NCBI GenBank assembly: GCA_964291265.2 | Contig: OZ219747.1 | Coordinates: 2,080,001 to 2,144,000 of the forward strand | Reading direction: 5' to 3' | DNA from: Alphaproteobacteria bacterium | GTDB taxonomy: Bacteria; Pseudomonadota; Alphaproteobacteria; SP197 | Length of the DNA: 64,000 nucleotides | Shown here: piece after piece, positions 3,521 to 62,901 of the stretch | Layout of the letters: the number at the start of each line of letters is the position of its first letter | How positions within the stretch are numbered: the first letter of the stretch is position 1 | Notes under the pieces: model-generated | Told to the model about the DNA's origin: nothing | The model's input: the letters and a program-made list of their open reading frames with translations, nothing else | Databases searched by the model: none | Program-made: the position numbers and the translations under genes

Positions 3521-3532
3521 GAGCGCGGTCGC

Positions 3533-27847: not shown

Positions 27848-28255
27848 GGCTCATTCCCCGGCTGCCGGCGGCAGCAGTGTAGTCAATGAAGGCCGATCGC
27901 AGCCAGGCGAACCGGCAGGCATGCGACACCGTCGCGCCACTCTCGGCACTCGTGACTGTCCACACCCTCGTCGCTTTCTCGAATGAACCCGGGAGATCCA
28001 CGTCAGCTTGATGATGGAGACAAGGTTCAGACGTCCTGACCTCGTGAGTTGACTTGATCCGTCCGGACCTTCTTTTTTTCCAACACAATGAACGGGTTTC
28101 CCAGTTTTTTGCTTGACACCATAGCCGCACCTTCGGTGCTGAACGGAACTGTAACCCACTGAAACAAAAAGCGTTCTCTCTCACGACATTCCGCCGGGGA
28201 AGCGGATTCATGCCGTTTCCGTACCCCCGGTGCAACAGGAATCGGGGAGAATGCC

Positions 28256-29392
28256 ATGCTGAAGACTCGCCTCACGCAACGACGGGTCGATGCCCTCAAA
28301 CCAACCGGAAAGACCCGTGACATTCGCGACTCCGACATCCGGGGCTTTGGTGTGCGTGTCCTGCCGTCAGGTCGCAAGAGCTACTTCCTCCACAGCCAGG
28401 TCGACGGCAAGAGGGTCTGGCAATCCATAGGAGACGCCGGGACCATGACCCTGGAGTGCGCCCGGGAGCGGGTGACCTCTCTCCTGGCGTCACGGTCCCA
28501 CGGTGACGAAGCTTCGCCTTCCGTCGCCGCATCCCTCCTGTTCGAGGATATCGCGGACGAAGTCTTCCGGCGCTACCAGCGGCACTGGAAGCCGAGCACG
28601 CTGGAGGTCAACCGCTGCTACTACAGGAACCATATCCTGCCGCGGTTCAAGGGCCGCGCCATAGACGAGATCACGCGACACGACGTTCAGCGCTGGTTCG
28701 CGTCGCTCCACGCGACGCCTGTGGCTGCGGACCGCTCGGCGCCGGTTCTGTCGGTGATCCTGCGTCAGGCGGAGGTCTACGGCTATCGCCCGGAGGGATC
28801 CAACCCATATACCGGCATCAAGCGTTACCGTCGGCGCAATCGCGAGAGATTCCTTGACGACGACGAGGTCCGACGGTTGAGCCGCGCTCTCGACAAGAGG
28901 CCTGCGAAGCAATCTCTCCTGGTCGCGATCGTGCGGTTGCTGCTTCTCACCGGTGCCCGGAAGTCCGAGATTCTGACACTCAAATGGTTGGACTATCGCG
29001 AGGGCAAGCTCTATCTGCGCGACAGCAAGACAGGGCCTCGCACGGTCTGGCTGTCATCGCATGCGCGCCGGATCCTGGACGGGCTGCCCCGAAGCAGCGC
29101 CTGGATCTTCCCCTCCCGTCGCGGGGACCGTTGTCTGTCGAAGAGCGCACTCGGCCGCTTTTGGTGTGACGTGCGTACAGAAGCGGACATCACGGATGTT
29201 CGCCTTCACGATCTGCGACATACATATGCCTCCGTGGCCATTGCCCATGGCGAGACGGTCCTCACCATCGGCCGGCTTCTGGGCCACAACAATCCCGCCA
29301 CCACTCTGAAGTACATGCATCTTGCCGACGCCTCGGTCCACGAGGCGGCAGAGGCTCTCGGTTCGATCCTGGGCGGGAGGGATCAGGCATGA
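28256..29392 (+). CDS. Tyrosine integrase with N-terminal arm-binding domain (pair member A)
   Basis: GFGVRVLPSGRKSY, TGARKSEI, DSKTG, LHDLRH, LLGH...TTLKY. Confidence 0.93.
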   Translation: MLKTRLTQRRVDALKPTGKTRDIRDSDIRGFGVRVLPSGRKSYFLHSQVDGKRVWQSIGDAGTMTLECARERVTSLLASRSHGDEASPSVAASLLFEDIADEVFRRYQRHWKPSTLEVNRCYYRNHILPRFKGRAIDEITRHDVQRWFASLHATPVAADRSAPVLSVILRQAEVYGYRPEGSNPYTGIKRYRRRNRERFLDDDEVRRLSRALDKRPAKQSLLVAIVRLLLLTGARKSEILTLKWLDYREGKLYLRDSKTGPRTVWLSSHARRILDGLPRSSAWIFPSRRGDRCLSKSALGRFWCDVRTEADITDVRLHDLRHTYASVAIAHGETVLTIGRLLGHNNPATTLKYMHLADASVHEAAEALGSILGGRDQA

Positions 29393-30552
29393 CACGCAAG
29401 ATGCGTCTGAGTGATCGTGTCGTTTCCCGGCTGGTGGCCGCACCGGGCGAATTCACTGTCTGGGACACGCGGATCACGGGCCTTGGTGTCAGGGTGCGGC
29501 CTTCCGGTCACAAGTCCTTCGTTCTCCTGGACAACGGCAATGGCTCCTCGAAACGCAGAACTCTGGGTTCCGCGACTCATATGACTGTCGACAAGGCCCG
29601 CTCCCGGTGTCTCGCCATCCAGTCCGGCGCCCTTAAATCCGTGACGGACACGCCACCGTCTCCTCTCTTCGGCGACTTTGTCGAAGATGTCTGGTGCTCG
29701 GAGTGTTTCGATCGATTCAAGCCGTCCACCCAGCGGACCACCGTGACCGCACTCAAGGCTCAACTCCTGCCAGCCTTTGGCGCCATGCCGCTTGACCGGA
29801 TCACACGCAAGGAGGTGATGGCGTGGTTCGACCACTACAGCGGGGCGGCGCCAAGCGGCGCCAACCGCGCTCTCGACACGTTGGGCCAGATCCTCAATCA
29901 CGCCAAGGTCCACGGCCATCTTGAGACCAACCCTGCACGAGGCATTCGCCGCAACCCGCAACGCCGGTTCAACCGGTTCCTGTCCCGGGACGAAACCCGT
30001 CGCCTACATGCCGAACTGGACCGACTGGTCGCAGAACGCCCCGAGCGGACAGCGCAGGCGGACATCATTCGTCTTTTGTTCTATACGGGATGTCGTCTGA
30101 GTGAGATTCGAAGGCTCAAGTGGTGCGAGGTCTGCGCCGATACTCTCGATCTTGAGGACAGCAAGACCGGACCACGAAAAGTCTACCTCAACAGCAAGGC
30201 CCGCCGGATCATCGCTCGTCAGCCCCGGACAGGCAGCGATCATGTCTTTCCATCGCCCCTTGATCCGACCGTACCCATATCGAGCGTCCAGCAGCTGTGG
30301 ATCACCCTCCGCGAACGGGTCGGAATCGAGGATGTGCGTCTGCATGACCTGCGACACAATTTCGCCAGCCAGGCTGTCCTCAACGGTGTGCCGCTTCCGA
30401 CCGTGTCGAGACTCCTTGGTCACCGGCAGGTTTCGATGACCCTGCGATACGCACACGTGGCGGACAGCGAAGTCGAAGCCGCTGCCGAACGGATCGGCGA
30501 AGGAATCGACGCCATATGTCGTTCGAGGACGCACAATCCACCACGACCATGA
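29389..30552 (+). CDS. Tyrosine integrase (pair member B)
   Basis: ATGA-coupled to A; GLGVRVRPSGHKSF, TGCRLSEI, LHDLRH, LLGHRQVSMTLRY. Confidence 0.93.
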   Translation: MTRKMRLSDRVVSRLVAAPGEFTVWDTRITGLGVRVRPSGHKSFVLLDNGNGSSKRRTLGSATHMTVDKARSRCLAIQSGALKSVTDTPPSPLFGDFVEDVWCSECFDRFKPSTQRTTVTALKAQLLPAFGAMPLDRITRKEVMAWFDHYSGAAPSGANRALDTLGQILNHAKVHGHLETNPARGIRRNPQRRFNRFLSRDETRRLHAELDRLVAERPERTAQADIIRLLFYTGCRLSEIRRLKWCEVCADTLDLEDSKTGPRKVYLNSKARRIIARQPRTGSDHVFPSPLDPTVPISSVQQLWITLRERVGIEDVRLHDLRHNFASQAVLNGVPLPTVSRLLGHRQVSMTLRYAHVADSEVEAAAERIGEGIDAICRSRTHNPPRP

Positions 30553-30706
30553 GATCAGCATCACCTCCTCACTGCGCGAGATGGATGACCCGATCCACGT
30601 GCCGCACGGTGTCTTGCACGGGTCGATTCCTTGACGACCTCCCCGGCCTCGGTGCATTCAGTTGGCATCGTACGAGTGCCGGTGTGAAGGACGATCGACT
30701 GACCGC

Positions 30707-33700
30707 ATGAACGCTGTGTTGCCCGAACCCGGCCGGATCGCTCTCGTGCGCCAACGCCGGTACCTTGTCGAGCACGTGACGCAATCTCCCGGTGGCAGTG
30801 ACGCGACGCTGGTTGATCTCAACTGCCTCGATGACGATGCCCAGGGTGAACCGCTTTCGGTACTGTGGGAACACGAGGTCGAGGCCCGCGTCCTCGAAGA
30901 CGACGGCTGGTCCTCGGTCGCCCGGAACGGCTTCGACGAACCGGCCCTCTTTGCCGCCTGGCTGCGTGCGCTTTCCTGGAACTGTGTGACGGCAACGGAC
31001 CCCGATCTCTTCCAGGCGCCGTTCCGGGCAGGGGTGAGGATCGACGCCTACCAGTTGGCGCCGTTGAGGAAGGCGTTGCGGCTGCCACGGGTGAACCTCT
31101 TCATCGCGGACGATGTCGGACTCGGCAAGACCATCGAGGCCGGGCTGATCGCCCGTGAGTTGCTGCTGCGGCGCCGGATTGACCGGATCGTGGTGTGCTG
31201 CCCTCCATCGATGCTCGATCAATGGCATGACGAGATGGAAGCCCGGTTCGGCCTCTCCTTTGTCATTCTCGACCGCCTCTACGTTACACGCATGCGCCGG
31301 GAACGGGGTTTCTCGGTCAATCCCTGGACCACCCATTCGCGGTTCCTGATTTCCCACCGCCTCCTGGTTGACCCAACCTACGCCTCGGGATTGCAGGACT
31401 GGCTCGGCGAACTCGCACCGCAGTCCCTGCTCATCCTCGATGAAGCTCACAACGTTGCCCCGTCGAGCGGTGCGCGCTACGCCATCGACTCCCAGATCAC
31501 ACGAGCCATCCGGGATATCGCGCCGCGGTTCGAGCACCGACTGTTTCTCTCGGCAACACCTCACAACGGGCACTCGAACAGCTTCTCCGCCCTGCTGGAG
31601 ATTCTCGATCCCCAGAGGTTCTGTCGCGGTGTTCCCGTCCTCAAGAGCCATCTGGATGACGTGTTGATCAGGCGCCTCAAGTCGGACATCCGCGAACTTC
31701 AGGGCGGATTTCCGAAGCGCACGGTCCGACCCGTCACCATCGATCACCTGCCCGACGATGCACCCGAACTGCGGCTGGCGGAGATGCTCGAGGAGTATCG
31801 GTCCTTGCGAGAGAAGAGACTTTCGCAGGAGTCCCGGTCCCGCCAGGCCGCCGGCGCTCTTGTCATCGGCGGACTGCAGAAGCGCCTTCTCTCATCCATC
31901 GACGCCTTCGCGCGCACGCTCGCGGTGCACCGCAGAAGTGTGGTGCGGGCCCTCGAGAAGGAGGAACCCGCGTCGACCCTCTCGGACGGAACCCATGCCG
32001 AACTCGAACGCCTGACTGTGGGTGTTGATGGCGACGAAGACCTTGCCGATACGGTCCCCGAAGAGGAGGACGGAGACGATCCTGGCGATGCACGGGAAGC
32101 GGACCAGTCGGAACGCGACCTTGCCGAATTGATGGAGACTGCCACCGCGGCGACGAGCGATGGCCGCGACGAGAACTTGAGAGCGGCCCTGACGGCGGAA
32201 CTCCGGAGTGTCGACGCGATGGCAAGCATTGCCGAGACGGCCCGCTACGATCCCGATCCACGCGCCGAAGCCATCATCAGGTGGATCGACGAGAACATGT
32301 GTCCGGTCCTGTCGTTCGAGCGCTCGACACCCGCTCGATGGAACGAGCGACGCCTGCTTGTCTTCACGGAGTACGAAGATACGAGGCGCTGGCTGCAACG
32401 CTGCCTGGAAGAAGCGATCGAGCATTCCGATCAGGCTTCCGAGCGGATAGCGGCCTTCACCGGAAGAACGTCCCGCCAGAGACGCGAAGACATCAAGCAT
32501 GCCTTCAACACCGAACCCGACAGTTATCCGCTTCGCATCCTGATCGCCACCGACGCGGCACGGGAGGGACTCAACCTGCAGCGTCACTGTCACGACCTCT
32601 TCCACTTCGACCTCCCCTGGAATCCCAGCCGTCTGGATCAGCGCAACGGCCGCATCGATCGCAAGCTCCAGCCCGCAGACGAGGTGGTCTGCCGCTACTT
32701 TGTCTTCCGCCAGCGCCCGGAGGACCGGGTGCTTCAGGTCCTGGTCGAGAAGGTCGAGCGCATTCGCGAGGAACTCGGGAGTGTCGCAAGGGTGGTGGAG
32801 AACCGCATCGCTAGCTCGATTGGTCGAGAGGGCATGCGGCGTGACGCCCTCGATGCCCTCACCATCTCCATCAGATCGGCCAGGGCCGACAAGCACCGCA
32901 GGACTGTTGAAGAGGAACTCGAATCGTCCCGTCGACGTCAGGATGTCTTGCGCGAGGAGATCGACAGACTGCGAAACGGTCTGGATCGATCACGCAGGCA
33001 CATCGGCATCACCGCAGAGCAGTTCCGTAACACCCTTTCCATGGGCCTGCGGCTCGCACGTGCGCCTGGTATCAGGGAACTGGACGCAGAAACGTCGGAG
33101 GATGCGCCGCAGCAGTTCACGTTTCCCGCCGAAGACGATGCCCTTGTCAGGGATGCGGGGTGGGCTGCGGCCCTTGATTCCCTGCGGGCGCGAAGACAGA
33201 AAGGAGAGACCCTGGGCGAATGGCGCCACCGTGCCGCCATCAGGCCCGTCGTCTTCGAGGACGTCGGTGGTCTGGGTGACGATGCCGTTCACCTGCACCT
33301 CGAGCACCGTGTGGCGAAGCGTCTTCTCGGGCTCTTCACGTCACAGGGCCTGATCCATCACGATCTCTCCAAGGCGTGTCTCACCTCGACCTCCGATTCG
33401 ATCCCGCGCGTGCTGTTGCTTGGCCGCCTCGCTGTCTACGGGCCAAGGGCCGCGCGTCTGCATGAAGAGATCATCGCGGTCGCGGCACGCTGGATCGAGC
33501 CCGATCGGCGTCGCGGCGCTCTCGAGGTCTATGGCCGGACAGGCGAACGGACAACACTTGCCTCCTTGCAATCGGCGCTCGATGAGGTCGGACGATCGCG
33601 GGTACCGGAGAAGGTGAGCGAACGCTTGAAGGAAGCGGCGGCCCGCGACATCAAGGACCTTCTGCCGCACCTTGAACGCCGGGCACGTGAACACGAGGAC

Positions 33701-34006
33701 ACGGCCCGGGAACGCCTTGGCAAGCGTTCCGAGGTCGAGCAGAAGGCCATGGTCGAGTTGCTCGAGCGTCAACGTGAACGGATTGCCAGGGCTGCCAAGG
33801 CTGCACACGAGGATGAGCCCCAGTTCGATTTCAATGACGCCGAGCAACGCCAACGTCAGGCGGACCTGCGCGCCTGGCAGCGGCGTCTCGAGGAGATCGA
33901 AAGGGAACGCGTGTCGGAGCCGGGACGGATTGCAGAGTCATTCGGGGTCCAGGCATCCAGATTGGATCCGATCGGCCTCGTCTACCTGTGGCCCAGGTCG
34001 GGATGA
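30707..34006 (+). CDS. drmD: DISARM SNF2-like helicase
   Basis: RLPRVNLFIADDVGLGKT, ILDEAH, LSATPHNG, ATDAAREGLNLQ, QRNGRIDR; first gene of the five-gene operon. Confidence 0.92.
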   Translation: MNAVLPEPGRIALVRQRRYLVEHVTQSPGGSDATLVDLNCLDDDAQGEPLSVLWEHEVEARVLEDDGWSSVARNGFDEPALFAAWLRALSWNCVTATDPDLFQAPFRAGVRIDAYQLAPLRKALRLPRVNLFIADDVGLGKTIEAGLIARELLLRRRIDRIVVCCPPSMLDQWHDEMEARFGLSFVILDRLYVTRMRRERGFSVNPWTTHSRFLISHRLLVDPTYASGLQDWLGELAPQSLLILDEAHNVAPSSGARYAIDSQITRAIRDIAPRFEHRLFLSATPHNGHSNSFSALLEILDPQRFCRGVPVLKSHLDDVLIRRLKSDIRELQGGFPKRTVRPVTIDHLPDDAPELRLAEMLEEYRSLREKRLSQESRSRQAAGALVIGGLQKRLLSSIDAFARTLAVHRRSVVRALEKEEPASTLSDGTHAELERLTVGVDGDEDLADTVPEEEDGDDPGDAREADQSERDLAELMETATAATSDGRDENLRAALTAELRSVDAMASIAETARYDPDPRAEAIIRWIDENMCPVLSFERSTPARWNERRLLVFTEYEDTRRWLQRCLEEAIEHSDQASERIAAFTGRTSRQRREDIKHAFNTEPDSYPLRILIATDAAREGLNLQRHCHDLFHFDLPWNPSRLDQRNGRIDRKLQPADEVVCRYFVFRQRPEDRVLQVLVEKVERIREELGSVARVVENRIASSIGREGMRRDALDALTISIRSARADKHRRTVEEELESSRRRQDVLREEIDRLRNGLDRSRRHIGITAEQFRNTLSMGLRLARAPGIRELDAETSEDAPQQFTFPAEDDALVRDAGWAAALDSLRARRQKGETLGEWRHRAAIRPVVFEDVGGLGDDAVHLHLEHRVAKRLLGLFTSQGLIHHDLSKACLTSTSDSIPRVLLLGRLAVYGPRAARLHEEIIAVAARWIEPDRRRGALEVYGRTGERTTLASLQSALDEVGRSRVPEKVSERLKEAAARDIKDLLPHLERRAREHEDTARERLGKRSEVEQKAMVELLERQRERIARAAKAAHEDEPQFDFNDAEQRQRQADLRAWQRRLEEIERERVSEPGRIAESFGVQASRLDPIGLVYLWPRSG

Positions 34007-37000
34007 GCATGGACCGACAGCATCGGGCCCTTGTCTTCGCCCACCAGGAGTGGCTCGGGTTCGTTCAGCCCACGGGACTCGTCGTCGCTCCGTTCGTGAT
34101 GGTGGACGCTCTGGTGGTCCCCGATCGAAACATGATGGGGCGCCAGCGGGAGTTTCGCGACCTTCTTGAAGAGACCGGAGAAGGCGCCTCGGCCGGATTT
34201 CGGGCTCCCGATCTGCGTCGGCTCTTCCTGGAGTATCTCCGGTGGGAAGAGAGCGATCTCATTGACGCAACCCAGCACCGCGACACCCTCGAGATTGCCT
34301 TGCCGGATTTGCAGGCCGTGCTCTCCCCGACATGGGCCGTCCCCGGGGGTGCGGCCGACGATGCCAACCAGATCATGCTGATCGGCGTCGAGGACGCCGG
34401 CGCGGATCTCGACAGGCCTGCGGACGACAGCGACGGATGGAACGCGTCACGGCACGCCCGGTTCGAACGCCTGCTGCGAGAGACAGGGATTCCAATCGGG
34501 CTGCTCGCAACGGATGAACGGGTCCGCCTCGTCTACGCTCCGAAGGGTGAAACGTCGGGACATCTCGATTTCGACTTGTCAGCCATGGCGCAACCGGCGG
34601 GACGGCCGATCCTTGCGGCCTTCGACATGCTGCTGTGTGCCGACTCTCTCTTCAGTGGTCCCGAGATATCACGATTGCCGGCACTTCTTGCAGCAAGCCG
34701 GGATGCCCAGGCCGGAGTTTCCACCAAGCTCGCCCGCCAGGTGCTGGCGGCGCTCTACGAGCTGCTTCGCGGGTTTGTTGCGGCGGACGCGCGACGCGAC
34801 TCGCCAAGCCGGCCCTCCCCCGACGAACTCTACGGTGGTCTTGTCACAACGCTCATGCGTCTGGTCTTCATTCTCTATGCCGAAGACCGCGGGCTCATGC
34901 CCGATCATCGTGTCTACCAGCAGCACTACTCCCTGGGCGGCCTCTTCTCCCGGTTGCGCGCCGATGCCGCGGCCTGGCCCGATACGATGGATCAGCGGTT
35001 TGGCGCCTGGGCGCAGTTGCTGTCCCTCTTCCGGCTGATCCACGGCGGCGGCGGACACGGCGATCTTTCCTTCGTCGCGCGCCGCGGCGCCCTCTTCGAC
35101 CCCCACCGCTTCGGGTTTCTCGAGGGACGCCATGGAGACGATGAACCCTCGATTCCGTTGGTGCCGGACGGATGTGTCTGGAAGGTCCTTCGATCGCTGA
35201 TGATGCTGGACGGGGAGCGCCTCTCCTATCGCACTCTTGATGTCGAGCAGATCGGTTCGGTCTACGAGGCGATCATGGGTTTCCGTGTCGAGACCACCAC
35301 GGGTCGCTCGATCGCCGTCGCCTCCCCAAAGGCGACGGGCGCCGCCGTCGTCGTCGACCTCGATCATCTGATCGGACTCGATGGAGCAAAGCGAGCGACG
35401 GCTCTTCGGGACGCAACGGCCCGAAAACTGCCGGACAAGGCGACAAGGACCCTGCGTCAGGCATCGACGATTCCTGACCTGGTCGCAGCCCTTGATCGCA
35501 TCATCGATCGGGACGCGACCCCCGATGTCGTGCCCATCGGCACTCCCGTGTTGCAGCCCTCCGATGAGCGTCGGCGTTCAGGGAGTCACTACACGCCCCG
35601 TTCCCTCACCGAACCGATCGTGAAGGAGGCCCTGCGTCCGGTTCTCGCCCGCCTGGGTCCTGAGGCGCGGCCAGAGGAAATCCTCGACCTCAAGGTCCTC
35701 GATCCCGCAACGGGGTCCGCGGCCTTTCTTGTCGAGACCTGCCGCCAGTTGTCGGTGCGCCTGGTCGAAGCCTGGGGCCGTCATGGCGCTCCGCAGGATC
35801 TCGGCGCGGATGAGGATCAGTTGCTGCACGCGAGGCGTCTCGTCGCTCAACGCTGCCTCTATGGTGTTGACCGCAACGCCATGGCCATCGACCTCGGTCG
35901 ACTTGCCCTGTGGCTCGTCACGTTGTCAAGGGACCACGAGTTCATCTTTGTCGACCACGCACTGCGTCACGGCGACTCGCTGGTCGGCCTCAGTCGGCAA
36001 CAGATCGAAGGATTCAGCTGGGACGCCGATGCGAAGCATTTCCAGTTCGGGACGGATCCGTTGCAGATCGAGAAGCGTCTGGAGCGGGTCGCGGAGACAC
36101 GCAATCTCATCCGCGACATCGGAGATCAGGCGGGTGAAGAGGAATTGCGGGACCTTCTCGACGAGGTCGAAGAGGAACTCTCGGACATCAACCTGACGGC
36201 AGCCCTGGTCCTGGCGGCCTTCTTCGCAGCACACAAGCCAAGGGAACGCGAGGAACTCCGCCTGGCGTTCGGCGACATGCGTTTCGCCGACCACTGGCGC
36301 GAGCAGATATCGCAAGTGGTCAGTGAGCGCCTGGCACTGACGCCGCACTTGTCACTGACGCCGTTTCACTGGGAACTCGAGTTCCCCGAGGTCTTCGACC
36401 GCGACAATCCGGGTTTCGACGTCATCGTCGGCAACCCACCCTTTGCCGGCAAGAACACGCTGATCGCCGGCAATCCCGATGCCTACCTCGACTGGCTCAA
36501 GCACAAGCACCGAGGAAGCCACGGGAACGCGGATCTCGCCGCTCATTTCTTCCGCCACGCCTTCGGTCTTCTGCGCCAAGGCGGCGCCCTCGGGCTCATC
36601 GCCACCAACACCATCGGTCAGGGCGACACGCGTTCAACAGGTCTGCGCTGGATCTGCAAGAATGGCGGGGAGATCTACCGCGTCCAGAAGCGGCTCAAGT
36701 GGCCGGGCGAGGCCGCCGTCGTGGTCAGCGTGGTCCACATCATCAAGGAAGGGAACGTGAGTTCCCGATCCATCGACGAACGGGAGGTCGAGTCCGTTTC
36801 GGCGTTCCTTGCACCGGGGAGTTGGCATGACGATCCGGTACGGCTGGAAGCTAATGCCGACAAGAGCTTCGTCGGAAGTTATGTTCTCGGCATGGGCTTC
36901 ACGTTTGACGACACGGACACGAAGGGAATGGCGTCATCACTGTCGGACATGGAGCGGTTGATCGAAGACGATCCGAGCAACGCCGATGTCATCTTCCCCT

Positions 37001-41348: not shown

Positions 41349-41353
41349 ACATC

Positions 41354-45372: not shown

Positions 45373-45523
45373 TATTGTTCTCCATGTTGTACGCGTCGAT
45401 TCGCAGCAGCGAAAAACGGGCACAATGATCCCTGGGCCGAAGCTAACCGATTTCCGGTGTTGATTTCAAGGGGAGCTGTGCCATGGCAATTCAAAAAGCC
45501 AGGCGCACCTCGCTCAGCTGCAT

Positions 45524-50167: not shown

Positions 50168-50178
50168 AGGAGGTGTCC

Positions 50179-51183: not shown

Positions 51184-54100
51184 TCACATGGAGAACCCGC
51201 GGCTCCGGGATCGCGACTGCTCCTGCCTTTGCTCCTCGCGCCGCCGTTCCATCCGCACGCTGTCATCGGGTGGACCATAAGCCTTCCTGATCTCCTCGAA
51301 GGCGGCCATGGCCTCGGCCATGTCACGAGCCGTCGCGCTGCCGTCGGCAAGCACCTCGCCGTAGGCTCCTTCACGCCCGAGAACCCGGCGAGCGTTCCAG
51401 GTCCAGCTCTGGGTCGCATCGTGCCAGTACTTGTATGCTGCGCTCTGGTGGAGAGCGAGACCCTCCTTCCCGGCTTCCGTGGCAAGCGACCGAGCGCGCC
51501 GATGAAAGTGATCGATCTTGCCTGCAAGGCGCCTGACCTCGGCTTTCACCTCATTGCGCCTGTCCTCGTCGTAAGTCTCCTGCCACAGCATCCGGCAGCG
51601 GGGATCGTCCGCCTCGAGTCTGCGGTAGAGCGCCGTCATTTCGGGGATGATGTCCTTCCAGGCCGGCGTCTGTGTGGGATGGACGCCCCGGCGGTCAGCC
51701 TCCTCGGCGTTGTCGTGGAGACGCAACAGCAGCCAGCCCGGAAGGGTGTCGCGTTTGTTTCTCTTCGCGATCATGCGCTCGACGCGGGAGACGAGAGCCC
51801 GGGCGCCCTCGGTCCCGTCGAGGTGGTGTGCGAGGGCGGGACTCTTCAACTCCCCGATCACCGGCGCCAGCGTCTCCGCCTCCTTCCGCCAGCGTTTCCA
51901 TCTCCTGTTCCAGCGTCGATTGAGCGGCCTGTCGCGTGATCCCTCCCGCTCCAGCAGTACCCTGCGGTCGCGGTCGAGGGCGCTCACGGACGCCAGGAGC
52001 GTTTCCACCCGTTCCCGCTCCCGGGCATGGGTGTCGGCCTCCTTGAGAGCCCGGGCGAGCGCCTGGGGAAGCACGGCGTCCTGGGGAGCCTGATCCTTCA
52101 GGCGTCGGATGGCTGCCAGGATCCGGCCGGCATCAGGGTGACCGAAGGCATCGCCGCCGGTCCGCCCCGCGTCATCGGCATGGTGGCGCCAGGTCTCGAC
52201 GAGGGCGTTGGCCTCGGTGTCGAAGGCGACGAGAGCCTCGAGGCGTTCTGCATCCCGCCATGTCGTCGCGCCCGTCGCGCCCGCCGCACCGGCTTTCCAG
52301 TCCGCGATCGCCGATCGGGTCTCCCGGCGCCATGTCTTCCATGCCGCCAGCGACGCGAGCGCCTGGCCCTCGGATGCGTACTGCAGTCGCTGACGCTCCT
52401 GCAGCGCCCGGGCAATTGCCTGTGCCGCCAGGACAGGATCGGGCGCCGGGGGTGGTGGAGTCGCGATCGATGGTGAGGATACCTCAGCGGGTGGCGGCGC
52501 CGGTCTGACGGGCCGCGGCGCCGGCGTTGCCGGCTGACGCGTTGGCGGAGTTGCCGGTGGACCGGGAGCCGGTGCCGGTTCTCGCGTCATCGTCGGCGTC
52601 CGCTCTGGCGCAGGCTTCCGTGCGGAAGGCGGGGAGGCCGCCGGTGCCGGACGCGGAGCGGGCGCCGTCGTCGCCGGCTGGCGCGTTGGCGGATCTACCG
52701 TTGGACCGGGCGCCGGTGCCGGTCCTCGCGTCATCGTCGGCGCCCGTTCCGGTGCAGGCTTCCGTGCGGGAGGCGGGGAGGCCGCCGGTGCCGGACGCGG
52801 AGCGGGCGCCGGCGTTGCCGGCTTGCGCGTTGGCGGAGTTGCCGGTGGAGCGGGCGCCGGCGCCGGTCCTCGCGTCATCTTCGGCGCCCGTTCTGGCGCA
52901 GGCTTCCGTGCGGCAGGCGGGGAGGCCGCCGGTGCCGGACGCGGAGCGGGCGCCGGCGTTGTCGGCTGGCGCGTTGGCGGAGTTGCCGATGGACCGGGCG
53001 CCGGCGCCGGTCCTCGCGTCATCGTCGGCGCCCGTTCTGGCGCAGACTTCCGTGCGGAAGGCGGGGAGGCCGCCGGTGCCGGACGCGGAGCGGGCGCCGT
53101 CGTCGCCGGCTGCGCCTTCTTCACACCCGTCACCGGCCCAGGTTGCGCCTCCTGCTTCTTCCGTTCCGCGCGCCATGCGTCACGGCGTTCCATGAAGTCA
53201 GCAAGGACCCGGGGTAGGGGTTCTCCATCGAGGATTCTCAAAGTCATGTTGTTGATGCAGTCCATCGCCAGAAGAGAGACATCAAGTCCGGCCTGGGGAT
53301 CGCGCGCGGCTGCCCTGGCCTCGGCCTCGTGCGCTTCCAGGCGGGCGACGAGGTCAACTGCACCATCATCCAGGTCGAAGGCCCGGCCAAGCCGAGCTGC
53401 GTCACGATCAGCCACGTCGCTCAGCGCACCATCGCGCCGCTGCCAGGCATCGACTGCGGCTTCGGCTCGCTTCCGCCAGCTGGCATAGGCGGCAAGCGAG
53501 GAAATCAGACGGCCCTCGGCCTCGGCAACCAGCGCCCGGCGTTCCTCGATCGCGGCAGCAAGACCTTCGACGACATCGTCACCTGATATGTGGTCGCCTG
53601 CAGGGGTCTCTGCCGGCGCCTCGGCGGCATCGTGATCCGTGGCGGGCATCTGCGGGGCCTCTCCGGATTGCGGCCTCTCCGCATGCGCCACGGCAAGCAA
53701 CTCCTCCTCGCTGAACAGAAGATCCAAGGCATCGGTGCCCGTTGTCGTCTCGTAACGGCGGACAAGGTCGTCCAGATCCCAGGGCAGTCTGGCGTAAGGC
53801 GGCGCTTCGCTGCCAACCAGGACCACATGCTGCACCAGTTCTCTGGCATCCGGGCTCAGGAGAGAATCCTCGTCGGGTTCTCCTTCCTTCGCGACATGAC
53901 GCCGGAGCTTCTCCACGAGTTCCAGAACATCGTTGTCGAAGGCAAGCAGGCCTTGCAGGGTCTCTGCTGTCTCCGTCCAGTCGATACGGCCTGCCACCTC
54001 GCCACCGATGTCGAGAGCGGCCGTCGTTCTCTCCTTCCATGCCGCATACCCGTCCATGCCGGAAAGGGGTGCGCCGTCAGCCGCGTCCTCGAGGCGAAGG

Positions 54101-56982
54101 CGTTCCTCGAGACACCGGTCGAGGTGGGGTTCAAGGGCGCGAAGCTCCTCCAGTCCCTTGGTCCGTCCGCGGACATCCTGCAGAGCGTCGTCGGAGAGAA
54201 CGGGCTTGGGGAGAACGTCGACCCGTGTTTCCCCTTCTTCCCGGAATTGTCCGCCGATCGCCTCGAGAGCGGAGAGTTCATCTCCCGTCGCCGTCTCGAG
54301 AGCCTCCACCAGAGCATCCCGGTCGTCGGTCAGCAGCACCGCGTTGTCGCGGGCCCGCGTCAGTTCGACGTAGAACGCCGCCTGGCCCGTGATGGCGCCC
54401 TGGTTCGCATCGAGGACAGCGATCACCTGATCGCAGGTCATCCCCTGGGCCGCATGAACCGTCGAGGTCCATGCATGATCGATGAAGTGCAGATGGGGGT
54501 CATCATGAGCCAGGGTCAGTGTGCGGCCGTCGGCGGCCTGAAGCCACAGGCTGCTCTTGCCGATCGAGAGGACCCGCGCCTCCTCGCCGTTGAGAAGACC
54601 GCGTTCCTTGTCGTTGCGGGTCCAGCGGATCCTCTCCCCGGCCTGGAGTTCGATTGGTTCCGTCTCGAAGAGATCGACCCGGTAGCGCAGGTACTTCGAC
54701 GGATCGGCCCGGCGGGTCTTCCCGTCCGGATGCCTGAGCAGGACCTTCTCTCCTTGCGATCCGATGACGCCGAAGATGTCGCCCGACTTCGCCTGGACAC
54801 CGTAGACATCCGCATGGAAGACGGCGATGTCGCCCTCGCGCCAGTTGTCGAGATCCCCTTTCTGGGCCCGGGTGAGGTGGAGATTGACGTAGCGCTCGAT
54901 CTCGAGTGTGCGCCCGTGGAGGTTCCCCTCGGCCTTGAGGCCATCGCGGATGCCCTGCGTGATCTCCCGGCGCCGGGCATGGGTCGGGGCCAGGACCTTC
55001 GTGGCCTTACGCGATTCCCGGTCGAGATCAAGCCACAGGGCCGCGGCCCGTGGTCCGAGTTCGTCCGCGTCCATCTCCAGGACGCCGGGGCCGAGTTCCT
55101 CGATGGCGAGATCCGGCTTGCCCTCGATCATGTGGAGCACCGCGGCCTTCAGGCTCTCGTTGCGCTGCCGCAGGACCTCGTCCATCACCGCCGTCTCCAT
55201 GCCGGCCTTCTGCAGCACCCGGAACGGCTGACCGGCCTCGACCGAGCGCAGCTGCGCCCGATCGCCCACCAGGGCAACCCGGGCGATGCCCGTCGCCTCG
55301 GCGATGCGGCTGAGACCGTGCATCTGCGCCATGCTGATGAGCGACGCCTCGTCCACCACGAGAAGGGTTCCTTCCAGGGCCTCGCGAGCTCGTGCCAGGG
55401 ATTGGATGTCGGCGCAGCCGTCGCCGACATCCCGGTAGCGGGTGAGGAACCACTGCAGCGTCTTCGTGCCGATCCCGGTCTCCCGCTGCAGCGTGCGGGC
55501 CGCACTGCTCGAGGGCGCCAGGGCGACGATCCTGTCGGCCCCGGCCAGTTCGACGACCTGCTTCAACATGGTCGTTTTCCCGGTGCCCGCATGCCCCTGA
55601 ACACCGCAGACATGACGGGAGGACAGCAGCAGGGTGTTGACGGCGGCCTTCTGGCCGTCGTTGAGCGCACCGGCCGCAAGGTGGCGCTCGATGTGGTCGG
55701 CATCGATGGCGAACCGCTCGGGGGCATCACTCTCCTGCTTCATCCAGCGAAGCACCGCGCGTTCGGCCTTCACGGCCCGGTCCGTGACGAAGGCGCAGTC
55801 GGAACGTGCCGCCGTCGCCTCGATGAGGTGACCTTCCCGTCGCAGCCGGCCGATCGCCGCATCGACCTCCTTGAGGGTCCAACGGCCCGGCGCCAGGACG
55901 AGGGCCCGCAGCATGTCGGCCGTGAAGACCGTGCGCCGCTCCTCGATGTGCTCGACCGCCCGGCGGACGGCGTGGAGCGCCGAGGGAGACTGCCGGTTGG
56001 CAACTCCCCGGCGCGCAAGGTGCCAGCGCTCGCGGTCGAGGCGTGTGTGGGATGCCGGGCGGTTGCGGGAGATGTGGCGGTTGCGGGGAGCGCACTCCGC
56101 CATGCGGGCCTTCCAGATGTTGGCGAGTTCCTCGCGCGACGGCTCGTCCTTGCGCTTGCGGGTATAGAGAACCGCCTGTTGCATCACGGCGGCCGACTGC
56201 TCGTCCAGGTTACGCTCCCGGGCCCACGCCACGGCCTGCGCCCGGCGGGTCGAGAAGGCCTCCAGCGTCGCCTTGTCGTAGCCGGCAATCTCGAAACCGG
56301 GCACGCTACCCACCATGGTCTGTTCGGTGGCGTAGCCCAGGGCCTCGATGCGCCGCCTCAACTCCGCCCGGTAGTGAGCGCCGATCAGCAGCTTCGCGCG
56401 CTCGATCCTGATGAAGTCGGCGCTGCGCCACTCGCCATCCGGGTTCCGGGTCATGTTGGCGACAACGCTATGGGTATGAAGCTGCGGGTCGAGGTTGCGG
56501 CTGGCGTAATGGCGGAAGGTCGCCGCCACAAGGCCGTCGGCCTTGATGCGCGGGCGCTTGCGGGTGGCGGGGTCCCATCCCCGGGTCTCCAGCAGCTCCC
56601 TCTCGATGAAGTCAAGTGTCGCGGTCACTGCCTCGTCATGCGCTCGGATGATCCGGGCTGCCGCCTTCGGCGCCGCGTGCACCAGGGCCTCCAGAGAGAC
56701 CGACTTCGGAGCCGAGAAGGTGATGTCGAGGCCCGGACGGTGCTCGTGCCGACCCTTGCGCAGGCGGCCCAGCCGGGTCTTCGTGCCAGGAATGCGCCCG
56801 GAGAGGACTTCCTCGAAGCGCTTCGGCTTGACGGGACCGTGAAGGCCCAGGGCCTCCACGCCCCTGCCATGCCAACGGCTCGCCTTGCGGTGCTCGAGGT
56901 CGTTCTTCGCGTAATATCCATCCACCTCGAAGTAATGGACCGTCGAGGCAGCTTCAGTGAGGCGGGTAACCGTGGCAACCAT
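51184..56982 (-). CDS. MOBF (TrwC/TraI-type) relaxase-helicase with a long C-terminal extension
   Basis: YF...GYY, DITFSAPKSVS, HYASRNLDPQLHTH (HUH); GHAGTGKTT, VDEAS, TVHAAQGMT; tail RSRSRGFSM. Confidence 0.95.
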   Translation of the reverse strand: MVATVTRLTEAASTVHYFEVDGYYAKNDLEHRKASRWHGRGVEALGLHGPVKPKRFEEVLSGRIPGTKTRLGRLRKGRHEHRPGLDITFSAPKSVSLEALVHAAPKAAARIIRAHDEAVTATLDFIERELLETRGWDPATRKRPRIKADGLVAATFRHYASRNLDPQLHTHSVVANMTRNPDGEWRSADFIRIERAKLLIGAHYRAELRRRIEALGYATEQTMVGSVPGFEIAGYDKATLEAFSTRRAQAVAWARERNLDEQSAAVMQQAVLYTRKRKDEPSREELANIWKARMAECAPRNRHISRNRPASHTRLDRERWHLARRGVANRQSPSALHAVRRAVEHIEERRTVFTADMLRALVLAPGRWTLKEVDAAIGRLRREGHLIEATAARSDCAFVTDRAVKAERAVLRWMKQESDAPERFAIDADHIERHLAAGALNDGQKAAVNTLLLSSRHVCGVQGHAGTGKTTMLKQVVELAGADRIVALAPSSSAARTLQRETGIGTKTLQWFLTRYRDVGDGCADIQSLARAREALEGTLLVVDEASLISMAQMHGLSRIAEATGIARVALVGDRAQLRSVEAGQPFRVLQKAGMETAVMDEVLRQRNESLKAAVLHMIEGKPDLAIEELGPGVLEMDADELGPRAAALWLDLDRESRKATKVLAPTHARRREITQGIRDGLKAEGNLHGRTLEIERYVNLHLTRAQKGDLDNWREGDIAVFHADVYGVQAKSGDIFGVIGSQGEKVLLRHPDGKTRRADPSKYLRYRVDLFETEPIELQAGERIRWTRNDKERGLLNGEEARVLSIGKSSLWLQAADGRTLTLAHDDPHLHFIDHAWTSTVHAAQGMTCDQVIAVLDANQGAITGQAAFYVELTRARDNAVLLTDDRDALVEALETATGDELSALEAIGGQFREEGETRVDVLPKPVLSDDALQDVRGRTKGLEELRALEPHLDRCLEERLRLEDAADGAPLSGMDGYAAWKERTTAALDIGGEVAGRIDWTETAETLQGLLAFDNDVLELVEKLRRHVAKEGEPDEDSLLSPDARELVQHVVLVGSEAPPYARLPWDLDDLVRRYETTTGTDALDLLFSEEELLAVAHAERPQSGEAPQMPATDHDAAEAPAETPAGDHISGDDVVEGLAAAIEERRALVAEAEGRLISSLAAYASWRKRAEAAVDAWQRRDGALSDVADRDAARLGRAFDLDDGAVDLVARLEAHEAEARAAARDPQAGLDVSLLAMDCINNMTLRILDGEPLPRVLADFMERRDAWRAERKKQEAQPGPVTGVKKAQPATTAPAPRPAPAASPPSARKSAPERAPTMTRGPAPAPGPSATPPTRQPTTPAPAPRPAPAASPPAARKPAPERAPKMTRGPAPAPAPPATPPTRKPATPAPAPRPAPAASPPPARKPAPERAPTMTRGPAPAPGPTVDPPTRQPATTAPAPRPAPAASPPSARKPAPERTPTMTREPAPAPGPPATPPTRQPATPAPRPVRPAPPPAEVSSPSIATPPPPAPDPVLAAQAIARALQERQRLQYASEGQALASLAAWKTWRRETRSAIADWKAGAAGATGATTWRDAERLEALVAFDTEANALVETWRHHADDAGRTGGDAFGHPDAGRILAAIRRLKDQAPQDAVLPQALARALKEADTHARERERVETLLASVSALDRDRRVLLEREGSRDRPLNRRWNRRWKRWRKEAETLAPVIGELKSPALAHHLDGTEGARALVSRVERMIAKRNKRDTLPGWLLLRLHDNAEEADRRGVHPTQTPAWKDIIPEMTALYRRLEADDPRCRMLWQETYDEDRRNEVKAEVRRLAGKIDHFHRRARSLATEAGKEGLALHQSAAYKYWHDATQSWTWNARRVLGREGAYGEVLADGSATARDMAEAMAAFEEIRKAYGPPDDSVRMERRREEQRQEQSRSRSRGFSM
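52510..53112 (-). repeat. 144-bp tandem repeat, about 4.2 copies, encoding a 48-aa Pro/Ala-rich unit in the relaxase
   Basis: gcgcgttggcgga recurs at 52681, 52825 and 52969. Confidence 0.92.
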
Positions 56983-57181
56983 GCAAGCTTATCCCCGAGC
57001 GATCGCAATAGAATTGCACAAGGCGTTCACCACACCGCTAGTTGCGACACTGACACCATATGAGTAGACTAATCTAACGAACTGAGCAAGTGGACTAAGC
57101 TTCCTGGCACTCCACGAAATGCAACGTTTTGCAACGCAGAAGTATAGACAAAGACACATTCCACAGTGGGGCGAGATCGCA

Positions 57182-58105
57182 ATGTCAGTGGAAATTCATT
57201 TTGGTGACTGTCTGGCTGTAACACCTGACTTCGAAACGGGATCGTTCAGCCTTGTATACATAGACCCTCCCTTCAACACGGGCCGAAAGCAAAAACGCAG
57301 ACAACTGAAGACGGTGCGAGACAACAACGGTGATAGAACGGGATTTCAAGGAAAGCGATACACAACACGCTGTCTTGGTGAATCATCATTTCACGACTCA
57401 TTCGATGACTACATGGGATTTCTGAAACCGCGCTTGATAGAGGCGAAACGCCTCTTGTCATCGACAGGCTCATTCTTCTTGCACATTGATTACCGGGAGT
57501 CTCATTATTGCAAGGTGTTCTTGGACACCGTTTTCGGACGCGAGTCGTTCATCAACGAGATCGTGTGGGCTTATGATTACGGTGCCAGATCGAAACGCCG
57601 ATGGTCTGCAAAACATGATACGATTTTGTGGTATGCTGTGAACCCGAAGGAGTACACCTATAGATATGAGGACATTGACCGCATCCCATATATGGCCCCA
57701 AATTTGGTAACGCCGGAGAAGGCCGCTCGCGGCAAGACGCCCACGGATGTTTGGTGGCAAACCATAGTCAGTCCAAATGGCAAAGAGAAAACGGGGTATT
57801 CAACACAAAAGCCCATTGCCATTCTGAATCGAATTATAAAGGTGCATAGTAACCCAGGAGACCGTGTTCTTGATTTCTTCGCGGGAAGTGGAACGACCGG
57901 TGAGGCGGCAGTTCGTAATGGTAGAAACGTGGTGTTGGTTGACAACAGTACAGAGGCGATTCGTGTTATGCGCCGGCGACTTGCGTTTGCAGAGCCGATC
58001 ATTCAGGGAGAAATGAAGGATGACGACAATTCAAGACCCGGAGGTCGGAATTCTAGCGACCTACTCGAAAGTACTGCAGTCGGACTACAAGGCCCCGGAC
58101 GATGA
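57182..58105 (+). CDS. N4/N6 DNA methyltransferase (beta class)
   Basis: GDCL, VYIDPPF, STQKP, VLDFFAGSGTT. Confidence 0.92.
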   Translation: MSVEIHFGDCLAVTPDFETGSFSLVYIDPPFNTGRKQKRRQLKTVRDNNGDRTGFQGKRYTTRCLGESSFHDSFDDYMGFLKPRLIEAKRLLSSTGSFFLHIDYRESHYCKVFLDTVFGRESFINEIVWAYDYGARSKRRWSAKHDTILWYAVNPKEYTYRYEDIDRIPYMAPNLVTPEKAARGKTPTDVWWQTIVSPNGKEKTGYSTQKPIAILNRIIKVHSNPGDRVLDFFAGSGTTGEAAVRNGRNVVLVDNSTEAIRVMRRRLAFAEPIIQGEMKDDDNSRPGGRNSSDLLESTAVGLQGPGR

Positions 58106-58586
58106 CCTATGGAACGGAAGCCCCTTCAACTGGATTCGATCCAGACCATCGAGACAGAAAGGTGCAATTGGTGAGAAGTTGATTGCTGGCTATCTAGCTT
58201 GTAAGGGGCTCGATGTCACTCGTTCGCCTGATGCTGAGGCAGATCGAATCATTGGCGGGAAACGAGCTGAAATAAAGATGAGCACTCTTTGGAAAAACGG
58301 TTCATACAAGTTTCAACAACTGCGCGATCAGAATTATGAGTTCGCGATTTGCCTGGGTATCAGTCCTTATGACGCTCATTGTTGGGTCATACCAAAGACA
58401 GAAATTACTAGCAAGCGGCATTCTATGGCGATCCCGTCTCAGCACGGCGGAAGAGTGGGAAGCGATACGGCATGGCTAACTGTCGATCCCCACGCAGTGC
58501 CCGACTGGTTGACAAAATGGGGCGGACGACTGTCAGATGCCGTGAGATTGATTACCAAGATTACCGAGCAAGAGCCGCTGAAGTGA
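58020..58586 (+). CDS. Putative type II restriction endonuclease, PD-(D/E)xK
   Basis: KGAIGEK...ADRII...AEIK; overlaps the MTase by 86 bp; same lower GC. Confidence 0.7.
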   Translation: MTTIQDPEVGILATYSKVLQSDYKAPDDDLWNGSPFNWIRSRPSRQKGAIGEKLIAGYLACKGLDVTRSPDAEADRIIGGKRAEIKMSTLWKNGSYKFQQLRDQNYEFAICLGISPYDAHCWVIPKTEITSKRHSMAIPSQHGGRVGSDTAWLTVDPHAVPDWLTKWGGRLSDAVRLITKITEQEPLK

Positions 58587-61382: not shown

Positions 61383-62506
61383 GCGTCAGTCCTTCCGAGA
61401 ACGGAGCCCACGGCCTCTGCCGCTTCAGCCATCATGCCGTCGGCGAGATGCGTGTACTTGAGAGTGGTCGCGGGATCGTTGTGACCGAGCAGTCGACCGA
61501 CGGTGAGAATGTTCTCTCCGTGCATGACGGCAAGGGAGGCGTAGGTGTGACGCAGGTCGTGAAGGCGCACATCCTCCAGGCGCGCTTCGGAGCGCACACG
61601 CATCCAGAAGTATCCGATGGCGCCTTGCGAGATGGACCTGGCGGTGGTCCTTGGCGATGGAAACATCCAAGGCGAACGACGAGGCAACGTCTTCAGGACC
61701 TTACGGGCGGGAGCCGACAGCCAGACCATGCGTGGCCCCGTCTTGGAATCTGCGAGATGGAGATGACCCTCGCGGTAATCCGCCCAGCGCAGCGACAGGA
61801 TCTCCTGGCTTCGGCACCCGGTGAGGAGCAGGAGGCGGATGATCGCCACCTGTGCCGGGAAGTGCGCTTCATGGTCCTGCAGCACGCGCCCGAGCCGGCG
61901 GACCTCCTCCACGCAGCAGAAGCGCTCCCGTCCCTGCCGTCGATAGCGCCTGATGCCCCGGCACGGATTGCTGCCTTCAGGCCGGTATCCGTAGTCCTCG
62001 GCACGGGCCATGATGACCGAGAGAACCGGAGCCGACCGGTCGGCTGCGACCGGCGTCGCGTGCAGGGAGGCGAACCACTCCTGAACATCGCCGCGCACGA
62101 TCTCCGCGATCTGGCGTCCACGGAACCACGGCAGGATATGGTTGCGGTAGTAGCCCCGGTTGACCGTGAGCGTACTGGGCTTCCATGTGCGCCCGTACCG
62201 GCGAAAGACCTCCTCGGCAACCGTCTCGAACAGGGTCTCGTGCGATGAAGCGGGAGCGCCGCTTCTGATGGCGGCGAGCATGGCCTGTGCGCGTTGTCTG
62301 GCCTCGGCGAGACCGATCCCGGCAGCGTCACCGACGATCTTCCAGATCCTCTGCCCATCATGCTGGGTATGGATGAAGTAGCGCTTGCGCCCCGATGGGT
62401 AGACACGGATGCCGAATCCCCTGAGATGGGCGTCACGGATGTCCCGGGCAGTTCTGCGAGGACGCAGGGCCTTGATGCGGCTCTCGGTGAGATGTGTTGC
62501 GGCCAT
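61379..62506 (-). CDS. Tyrosine integrase (pair member A)
   Basis: GFGIRVYPSGRK, TGCRSQEI, DSKTG, LHDLRH, LLGHNDPATTLKY; ATGA-coupled to B. Confidence 0.93.
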   Translation of the reverse strand: MAATHLTESRIKALRPRRTARDIRDAHLRGFGIRVYPSGRKRYFIHTQHDGQRIWKIVGDAAGIGLAEARQRAQAMLAAIRSGAPASSHETLFETVAEEVFRRYGRTWKPSTLTVNRGYYRNHILPWFRGRQIAEIVRGDVQEWFASLHATPVAADRSAPVLSVIMARAEDYGYRPEGSNPCRGIRRYRRQGRERFCCVEEVRRLGRVLQDHEAHFPAQVAIIRLLLLTGCRSQEILSLRWADYREGHLHLADSKTGPRMVWLSAPARKVLKTLPRRSPWMFPSPRTTARSISQGAIGYFWMRVRSEARLEDVRLHDLRHTYASLAVMHGENILTVGRLLGHNDPATTLKYTHLADGMMAEAAEAVGSVLGRTDA

Positions 62507-62901
62507 GGAGTCTCCCTCGAATGCGAGTTGCAGGAGCGGGAGATTCCGCTCGCGAAATCGCCTGCAGTTGCAGAAACGAGAGAGAAAATACGGCGTTAGT
62601 TCAGTTGTTTAGCACCACAGGTGCGTCCCGCGGTGTCGGAGAACCCATGCACGTCCGCACGCCTTCTGTTGGGACCCTGGGAGGTCTTCGAACTATCCCG
62701 CCTGTCGTGGCGGGACCGTGTAGGGAAAGGAGAAAGCCGAAGCCTATGAGGAACGGTTTGAAGAAGTCGGATGGGGCCGTAAGACCGGTGAAGGCGGCGA
62801 ACAAGGGAGCGTCAGCTTCTGCGGAGTCGCTGGAGGAAAGGGCCTCAACCAAGGGGAATCCGGGACGCCAAAGCACGCACCGAACGCAGTGTCGGGCAAG
62901 T

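Follow-up and report, generated by a model that had tools for sequence, protein, structure and literature searches.

Why should a mobile element begin with two different integrase genes rather than one? The 64,000-nucleotide stretch analysed here (the window), C2:2080001-2144000 of a 4.8-Mb, two-contig alphaproteobacterial genome (G000; contig OZ219747.1 of assembly GCA_964291265.2), raises this question twice. A first-pass annotation, made from the letters alone, had described in it two elements that each start with a pair of tyrosine integrase genes (intA and intB) and share a terminal palindrome, and had proposed an obligate two-subunit integrase that delivers defence systems. We found that both pairs stand at the head of mobile islands that carry defence genes, belong to one many-copy family and are nested, one inside the other. 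Judging from sequence comparisons, we assign a probability of roughly 55% to the reading that, in these islands with their 10-base cores, IntA and IntB probably work together in a single XerC/D-like complex and the junction is likely also a relaxase nick site.

Two nested members of an island family

The ATGA-coupled pairs were found at the heads of both elements as annotated: intA1 (28256-29392) and intB1 (29389-30552) on the plus strand, encoding 378 and 387 amino acids (aa), and intA2 (62506-61379) and intB2 (61382-60243) on the minus strand, encoding 375 and 379 aa. In an alignment of the four proteins, A1 and A2 were 63% identical and B1 and B2 48% identical, compared with 37-38% between A and B; similarity therefore follows position in the pair, as had been claimed, and the A and B motifs quoted at that time were recovered. 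The residues R235, K258, H318, R321, H344 and Y353 were kept in all four, which confirms the reported R, K, HxxR, H and Y. Each protein contains core-binding and catalytic domains, and Arm-DNA-bind_3 was scored in three, including IntA1, while the fourth aligns over the same region. The closest fold to a predicted model of IntA1 (predicted local distance difference test score, 75) was that of lambda integrase.

Genome-wide, we identified nine intact intA-intB pairs, all with A before B and an ATGA overlap, together with fragments and one more distant pair. Among five near-complete genomes of the same genus, all 30 listed A matches spanning at least 370 residues had B directly downstream (interrupted in four cases); a single listed B lacked a full A, and it was broken and lay downstream of an A fragment. 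These results bear out the idea of a family with a fixed A-B order. Eight of the nine pairs open with CGCACC-NNN-GGTGCT, and the leader of the ninth holds other DNA, apparently an insertion. The exact pattern ACAC-N6/7-CGCACC-NNN-GGTGCT occurred eight times in the genome, each time at an A-B pair, and in none of 400 other genomes of the phylum, so that the motif is not a product of chance. Integrase matches at E ≤ 1e-40 were found in 14 of 22 same-genus genomes, which, set beside the 400 genomes without the pattern, indicates a patchy distribution. The closest loci in named records are titled Alphaproteobacteria, and other close loci are titled Gammaproteobacteria, Acidobacteriota or Bacteroidota. 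Copy load amounted to nine pairs in the window's genome and 16 in another, G013.

Although the leader motif described in the first-pass annotation is real, its first part, GACACC-N5, comprises the attachment (att) core and host target. Upstream of CGCACC, the copies differ except for ACAC and a spacer; because uninterrupted target copies contain ACAC and the spacer, we assign these bases to the host and place the start of the element at CGCACC. Empty sites were found for five of the seven both-ended elements in this genome, and right ends, located via the empty-site sequence, finish in ACAC followed by the same spacer as on the left. Right ends also have two boxes in common, TTGAC/TTGC approximately 100 bp from the end (36 of 37) and GAG approximately 60 bp from it (37 of 37), which allowed a right-end search that ignores the spacer. 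The general layout is core, hairpin, leader, intA-intB, cargo, MOBF relaxase, right end and core, and both-ended elements range from approximately 6 to 130 kb. Element 1 is inserted in an insertion sequence (IS)-like repeat, element 2 in a group II intron and further copies in other repeats or, in one case, a DEAD-box helicase gene; no tRNA or tmRNA target was found in the window.

Element 1 (52,108 bp) runs from window position 28126 to C2:2160233 (window-equivalent 80233) and thus ends beyond the window. Its left att core (28116-28125, plus strand), ACAC with the spacer CATAGC, is part of the host target, a multicopy IS-like repeat of approximately 1.9 kb, and the identical 10 bases recur on the right at C2:2160230-2160239 (window-equivalent 80230-80239). 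The first bases of the element (28126-28139, plus strand) are C and the hairpin GCACC-TTC-GGTGC (28127-28139), and the leader (28140-28255, plus strand) holds an IHF-like box and, at 28174, a TTCTCTCTC box; the latter is a predicted arm-type site, mirrored by GAGAG approximately 60 bp inside right ends. Element 2 (13.3 kb), on the minus strand, is nested in element 1, within a group II intron inside an IS66 copy, where it splits off the 5΄ part of the intron (49134-49345, plus strand). Its left core (62627-62636, minus strand) reads ACAC (62636-62633) and CGCGGG, where the intron resumes, its reverse transcriptase running off the window, and its first bases (62612-62626, minus strand) are A, C and the hairpin GCACC-TGT-GGTGC (62624-62612). 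The right core (49340-49349, minus strand) repeats ACAC (49349-49346) and CGCGGG. The adjoining right end (49350-49451, minus strand), with a TTGACA box (49451-49446) and a GAG box, is predicted to be an outward promoter, from which transcription would cross the circle junction and enter intA-intB. Both elements described earlier are therefore real, but their nesting, with the core of element 2 inside the intron, had been missed.

The anti-phage cargo reported for both elements was recovered as DISARM class I in element 1 (30662-43953, plus strand; drmD, drmMI, drmA, drmB and drmC) and as a type II methyltransferase with a restriction enzyme in element 2 (57119-58586, plus strand). The protein named Schlafen (44029-45423, minus strand) fared less well: it has an AlbA_2 domain only and gave no PADLOC match, and its defence role is putative. 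Across the genome's elements, DISARM class I occurred twice, and the remaining cargo consisted of Hma genes, HNH proteins and type II methyltransferases, some accompanied by a recognised nuclease and some not.

The left-end hairpin and mobilisation

The stem of the left-end palindrome is perfect in 79 of 87 copies, with a free loop of 3 or 4 nucleotides (nt), and two copies carry compensatory double changes. The palindrome is thus conserved, but it had been read only as a terminal mark, whereas in sequence it has the form of a MOBF origin-of-transfer (oriT) hairpin. On the bottom strand, the window's left end reads GCACC-loop-GGTGCG-spacer-GTGT, and R388 reads GCACC-GAAA-GGTGCG-TATT-GTCT (PMC4814116; published systems are described throughout from the parts consulted of each cited paper). 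The hairpin arms, including those of element 1, are the arms of R388 inverted repeat 2 (IR2). More generally, the nick sites (nic) of R388 (TrwC) and F (TraI) resemble the window's site in having a 5-bp hairpin, a free loop, G, a linker, GT(G/C)T and a purine (PMC4814116, PMC4176350, PMC3074121); they differ in that the window's linker is 2-3 nt longer and variable, and in that its site is completed by the att core rather than standing alone. The base before ACAC was a pyrimidine at 36 of 36 right ends, compared with only 49 of 77 host flanks, which would place a purine after the nick in the predicted circle junction; R388 TrwC requires a purine at this position (PMC4176350). No other canonical nic was found in the seven elements of this genome beyond one chance-type match. 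An IHF-like box follows the hairpin within one mismatch in 28 of 87 copies, as against 1.3 expected.

A plasmid search recovered integrase pairs from cultured bacteria, namely Shewanella, Vibrio, Photobacterium and sphingomonads. In Shewanella and Photobacterium, the units measure 8-11 kb, have no relaxase inside and have as their boundary sequence ACACCCCACG, which is complementary to the F nic (PMC3074121); the empty site lies near traI in related plasmids, and this sister clade is inserted exactly in the F-type nic of plasmids. A 9-nt linker is present in the sphingomonad and L014/L140 sister groups, and in the host's genus an ACAC-N5-GCATC-NNN-GATGC site, again with a 9-base linker, lies close to each of two relaxase loci of the canonical type.

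A MOBF relaxase-helicase gene, unmentioned in the first-pass annotation, lies near the right end in all seven both-ended elements of the genome, although two copies, including that of element 1, are interrupted. The copy in element 2 (TrwC/TraI-type; 51184-56982, minus strand, 1932 aa; relaxase domain at 56982-55993) has the catalytic tyrosine and HUH motif, and its best PDB match was R388 TrwC; catalytic motifs are kept in most rows of the family's relaxases. With an integrase and att-bounded ends, and with a relaxase of their own and no mating pore, the islands are, to judge from their gene content, integrative mobilisable elements (IMEs), fitting that class on every testable feature.

According to our preferred reading, excision by IntA and IntB together would yield a circle that keeps its spacer, and the circle junction would put the right-end promoter before intA-intB. 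The bottom strand of this circle, hairpin-G-spacer-GTGT-purine, would constitute a lengthened MOBF nic that is cut by the element's own relaxase, and the nicked element would be transferred through the mating pore of a helper. The family may descend from elements that targeted MOBF oriT sequences and later relaxed in specificity. Only tentatively do we extend this to the proposal that att site and transfer origin have merged into a single site, taken over from MOBF plasmids, so that a heteromeric integrase that recognises nothing but ACAC in the host is aimed by the 6-base spacer brought along from the previous site, and excision builds both a promoter and an oriT.

Several observations weigh against this part of the reading. 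The hairpin lies 11-12 nt from the putative nick across a variable linker, whereas the distance is 9 nt in F and R388, and TrwC needs nt 17-25 to be nearly invariant (PMC4176350). Three both-ended 10-kb members in relatives gave no relaxase match, and right ends in relatives were mostly sought beside the relaxase gene, which biases that association outside the window's own genome. Searches of that genome yielded no match to a coupling protein, VirB4 or VirB10, and there was no pore family among the scanned open reading frames (ORFs) of the elements; a strong coupling-protein and VirB10 match was obtained in one of five genomes, a relative, beside a relaxase. No excised circle was seen either: the contigs of three public runs from one study contained no junction for element 2 or for the left end of element 1, a null that is no evidence because contigs drop rare variants.

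Some of these points would also suit an account in which the hairpin is a relic of an ancestral oriT target and now serves as an integrase or IHF-adjacent site, the true oriT lying elsewhere or transfer being non-conjugative. Such a relic is compatible with the rest of our favoured explanation, and a linker that is variable and longer than the canonical one, together with the helper machinery missing from the searches of the genome, speaks for it. However, the stem has been kept, with compensatory changes, while loop length varies, the relaxases mostly keep their catalytic motifs, and the seven elements offer no other canonical nic; we therefore regard the relic as doubtful.

Further observations concern the same genes and ends. 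Relaxases at loci L230, L233, L234, L235 and L239 fall in the family's clade and lack the second tyrosine pair. An IS21-type unit with a Toprim gene interrupts the relaxase genes of two elements at different codons (G000:C2 ~2146100-2151400 and ~1702000-1707400; L130, L136). A general hairpin at right ends was considered and rejected: ACAC was paired at 0.54 versus 0.44 in shuffled sequences, 24 of 37 ends exceeded the control, and the signal was clear in one subclade only. The distant integrase pair at G000:C2:3749385-3778770 (L140, L229) lies between two canonical MOBF nic-like sites (ACAC CCGAC and a hairpin), 29 kb apart, and by these flanks we take it to be a sister element, resident in this genome, that targets oriT. 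At L222 (a Novosphingobium sp. P6W plasmid), L192 and L223, DRT3, a retron, type I restriction genes and a darobactin cluster are carried by sister elements or by DNA next to them.

The integrase pair and its spacers

The first-pass annotation had named separate A and B clades as a test of its proposal. We computed a recombinase tree of 234 rows from fetched loci, which were ranked by likeness to A1, and the two did not mix: none of the 97 rows in the A clade was a second gene, and none of the 89 rows in the B clade was a first gene. Because of this ranking, lone B genes are under-sampled in the tree. None of the 234 rows had a recombinase neighbour on both sides. The six catalytic residues were invariant in both clades (97/97 and 89/89). 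Over 87 pairs, A-A and B-B identities were correlated (r = 0.86), the nearest neighbour was the same in 49, and each A was 32-45% identical to its own B, as paralogues. In one subclade the arm domain was lost from A and B together. A maximum-likelihood tree of 115 rows that included cultured relatives also gave mirror-image A and B clades, with the Shewanella, Vibrio and Photobacterium pairs as sister to the window's family (values of 96 and 99 in the SH-like approximate likelihood-ratio test [SH-aLRT], from a quick search in which the Photobacterium rows were long).

The two arms of the core, ACAC and CGCACC, are unrelated in sequence. By the reasoning applied to XerC/D, unlike arms suit two different subunits. 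Co-inheritance, intact catalytic residues, joint loss of the arm domain and unlike arms thus favour a complex in which A and B occupy separate arms, and in this way lend indirect support to an obligate two-subunit integrase. One subunit would bind the ACAC arm, found in element and target, and the other the CGCACC arm, fixed in the element only; since only one arm would then be needed from the host, the host would supply just ACAC and a matching spacer. Integration would occur at ACAC with the same or nearly the same spacer, mismatches being tolerated at positions 2-3, and these tolerated mismatches would let the spacer drift from hop to hop. The evidence is not all on this side. The SH-aLRT value at the base of the A clade was only 88 when cultured relatives were included, and at strict cut-offs only five real clade-diagnostic residues split A from B, so that specialisation of the subunits is not visible in sequence. 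Memory of the spacer, considered below, is likewise weak: four pairs that are 91-97% identical differ at three or four of five positions, and one pair that was counted for it probably represents the same site.

Alternatively, the two integrases might divide the task, each forming a separate homo-oligomer, with integration assigned to one and excision to the other (or with one as the regulator of its partner) and both kept for the life cycle. Co-inheritance and intact catalytic residues fit this arrangement equally well. IntA and IntB each have their own arm-binding domain, and no excisionase-like family was found among the element ORFs scanned, which in loci outside the window were those of at least 130 aa. 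The unlike arms of the core nevertheless suit two different subunits better than one protein acting on an inverted repeat, and a division of this kind seems unlikely to us.

To compare spacers, we followed 55 left ends, with downstream DNA from 11 genomes, and found a right end for 44; the 11 left ends for which none was found included 917811 in the window's genome. Two right ends chosen by spacer match only were wrong or unconfirmed (L033/L126 at 7.9 kb was replaced, and L106 and L074 were not counted), and right ends were therefore sought with a spacer-blind profile. Those of L113, L115, L121 and L031 had first been spotted by spacer search, those of G013_299 and G019_C90 needed a register shift by eye, and G004_346, with a displaced right end and a matching spacer, was not counted. 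Left and right spacers matched exactly over 6 bp in 36 of the 44 elements, with one mismatch in five and three mismatches in one. The remaining two, both in G013, carry each other's spacer, which marks a reciprocal rearrangement. Seven of the eight mismatched bases were located at positions 2-3 (p ~0.009 if uniform over positions 2-6). An empty site is known for a single mismatch case, and there the right end is identical to the target sequence, whereas the left end departs from it; no empty copy was found in four of the five mismatch cases examined (G005_516 lies outside those five).

The 94 left ends, grouped into 77 site clusters, displayed 75 distinct spacers, in which position 1 is C, G or A according to subfamily and positions 2-6 are free. 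Between nearest relatives at different sites, spacers differed at 2.95 of five positions, compared with 3.68 by chance (21 disjoint pairs at ≥80% identity, p 0.0004; the rows are kin). A fixed spacer in the sphingomonad group was dropped as evidence of such memory, because its flanks appear in several cases to be tandem neighbours. Some sites have been used by more than one distinct element: the intron site is occupied twice in the window's genome, and two more sites are common to G013 and G005. ACACC occurs 10,319 times in the genome, and 10-mers of this kind, ACAC plus spacer, 9-43 times each.

The variety of spacers might instead reflect target duplication without homology, in which a staggered 6-bp cut is made at any ACAC(C), the donor spacer is lost and both ends copy the target in the manner of a transposon. 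The near-equality of distinct spacers and site clusters, the abundance of ACACC, and two copies in one genome that are 97% identical and differ at three of five spacer positions are all consistent with it. Such a mechanism is, however, at odds with the clustering of end mismatches at positions 2-3, the spacer bases common to nearest relatives above chance, the reuse of sites by distinct elements and the finding that, where the sequence can be read, it is the left end rather than the right one that departs from the target; we consider it improbable.

Least probable of all is relaxase-driven movement, in which the HUH relaxase-helicase would nick after GTGT at donor and target in a rolling-circle process and the tyrosine recombinases would only resolve or excise: the ends do have the form of a nic, R388 TrwC is capable of integrating DNA at such sites (PMC4176350) and F TraI joins variant linkers given a hairpin (PMC3074121), but two elements with 99% identical relaxase regions have different spacers, each matched at both ends, so that relaxase specificity cannot explain the match, and the Shewanella and Photobacterium units and the three 10-kb family members have no relaxase inside.

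Some loci deserve separate mention. Spacers pair across distant elements at G013:C1 near 4800/4672000 and 2136500/2164200 and at G004:C2 near 346850 and 827900, marking large rearrangements. The mosaic element L134 (G000:C2:936301-953024), at the same intron site as element 2, combines integrases 96% identical to those of element 2 with a relaxase and right end that belong to a different subfamily. Elements from three genomes, one from each (L116/L153, L181/L172 and L037/L167), are inserted in a coding motif reading DTNV, which we take to be typical of PIN-domain genes. At L053, L054, L056, L061, L066, L069, L073, L075, L078 and L013, both A and B are without the arm-binding domain and no hairpin leader was found; five of these armless loci appear to begin just upstream of a small antitoxin-like gene on the opposite strand. 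L017, L070, L096, L100, L102 and L104 form a second, independent twin-integrase group, which arose among single integrases.

Related systems and neighbouring features

A literature search, which left most subscription papers and supplements outside its reach, found no published description of this twin-integrase family, and the parts consulted of PMC8138268 and of bioRxiv 10.64898/2026.01.13.699239 make no mention of such pairs. Tandem tyrosine integrases on a mobilisable element have already been published for MTnPi1-3 of Prevotella intermedia, which have a degenerate att (PMC4755523, PMC5704250). The MTnPi 'Tyr duo' and the IME_oriT elements are the closest known systems. MTnPi1-3 share with the window's family a tandem pair of tyrosine integrases, a relaxase, the lack of a mating pore, the presence of several copies in one genome and a short att with a free middle, TTAC-N5-AA and also TT(A/G)C-N5-AA (PMC4755523); the need for both integrases was suggested but, in the consulted part of that paper, not experimentally tested. 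The MTnPi integrases have no significant homology to each other, whereas A and B are Arm-DNA-bind_3 paralogues, and, as described, the window's family is also set apart by its ACAC-N6 core, MOBF relaxase, nic-type hairpin and other phyla. IME_oriT of streptococci uses the oriT of a conjugative element as its integration site (PMC7563843, PMC5704250), which is also true of the Shewanella and Photobacterium clade. Its hosts, however, are MobT elements, its relaxase is MobT-like, it belongs to Firmicutes, and a tyrosine integrase is described with no pair mentioned in the part consulted (PMC7563843); the window's two elements sit in an IS-like repeat and an intron, and their family uses scattered sites rather than oriT.

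SE, GInt and Tn554 resemble the window's elements in having two catalytically intact tyrosine recombinases, a left-end operon and a 6-bp spacer, and both recombinases were shown to be needed for SE and Tn554 (PMC10214605, PMC3414803). In SE, tfp lies between intA and intB and srap is also present, whereas no gene separates the overlapping intA and intB of the window. SE and GInt have 13-19-bp terminal inverted repeats and, at one end, a donor footprint that makes the ends differ, in contrast to the unlike ends and matched spacers found here; SEs are also non-mobilisable. Tn554 has one recombinase of >600 aa, TnpC and no target duplication; the window has proteins of 375-387 aa and a repeated 10-bp core. 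RIT elements also have overlapping genes for non-identical recombinases in position-specific families, but with three genes instead of two, 28-34-bp terminal inverted repeats and no relaxase (PMC3414803). The IntSXT subgroup has the same genomic-island-type N-terminal arm domain with core-binding and catalytic domains; its members are single integrases at fixed sites beside conserved genes, and the main text does not use the word 'tandem' (PMC8138268).

Set against these systems, the family provides the clearest genomic case here for a two-subunit integrase of the arm-binding class. Why MTnPi, RIT or Tn554 need several recombinases becomes testable in a laboratory strain, since a sister element, an 11-kb unit, is available on the megaplasmid of Shewanella oneidensis MR-1 (NC_004349.1, SO_RS22330 and SO_RS22335). 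The surprising parts are that the spacer is free between sites yet matched at both ends and that the attachment site is built on a nick site; one short site would link integration and conjugation, pointing to a path by which an oriT parasite could become a genome-wide transposon. In its hosts the family is also a major vehicle for anti-phage systems, and large rearrangements are marked by its copies. Should the spacer determine the target, a compact integrase pair would be retargetable among some 10^3 ten-base sites, and if att and oriT were indeed fused, the result would be a DNA-guided, self-retargeting integrase that moves defence islands of 6-130 kb.

Within element 2, two ORFs with NikA/MobA-like ribbon-helix-helix matches (49915-50894, plus strand) overlap a 200-aa ORF on the opposite strand and are candidate genes only. 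A 144-bp tandem repeat lies in the relaxase-helicase gene (52373-53236), and a 24-bp tandem repeat is found at 14651-14875. The group II intron (18343 onward and 49134 onward in the window) is present in dozens of copies in the genome, inserted in IS66 copies. Transposase-associated proteins with a match to Pfam DruA (Druantia) are encoded at 47405-48325 and at L133:6435-8771, and one is fused to Tn5-type transposase domains. Near-identical duplicates of a hydantoinase region lie 22.3 kb apart at 2861-4030 and 25244-26323.

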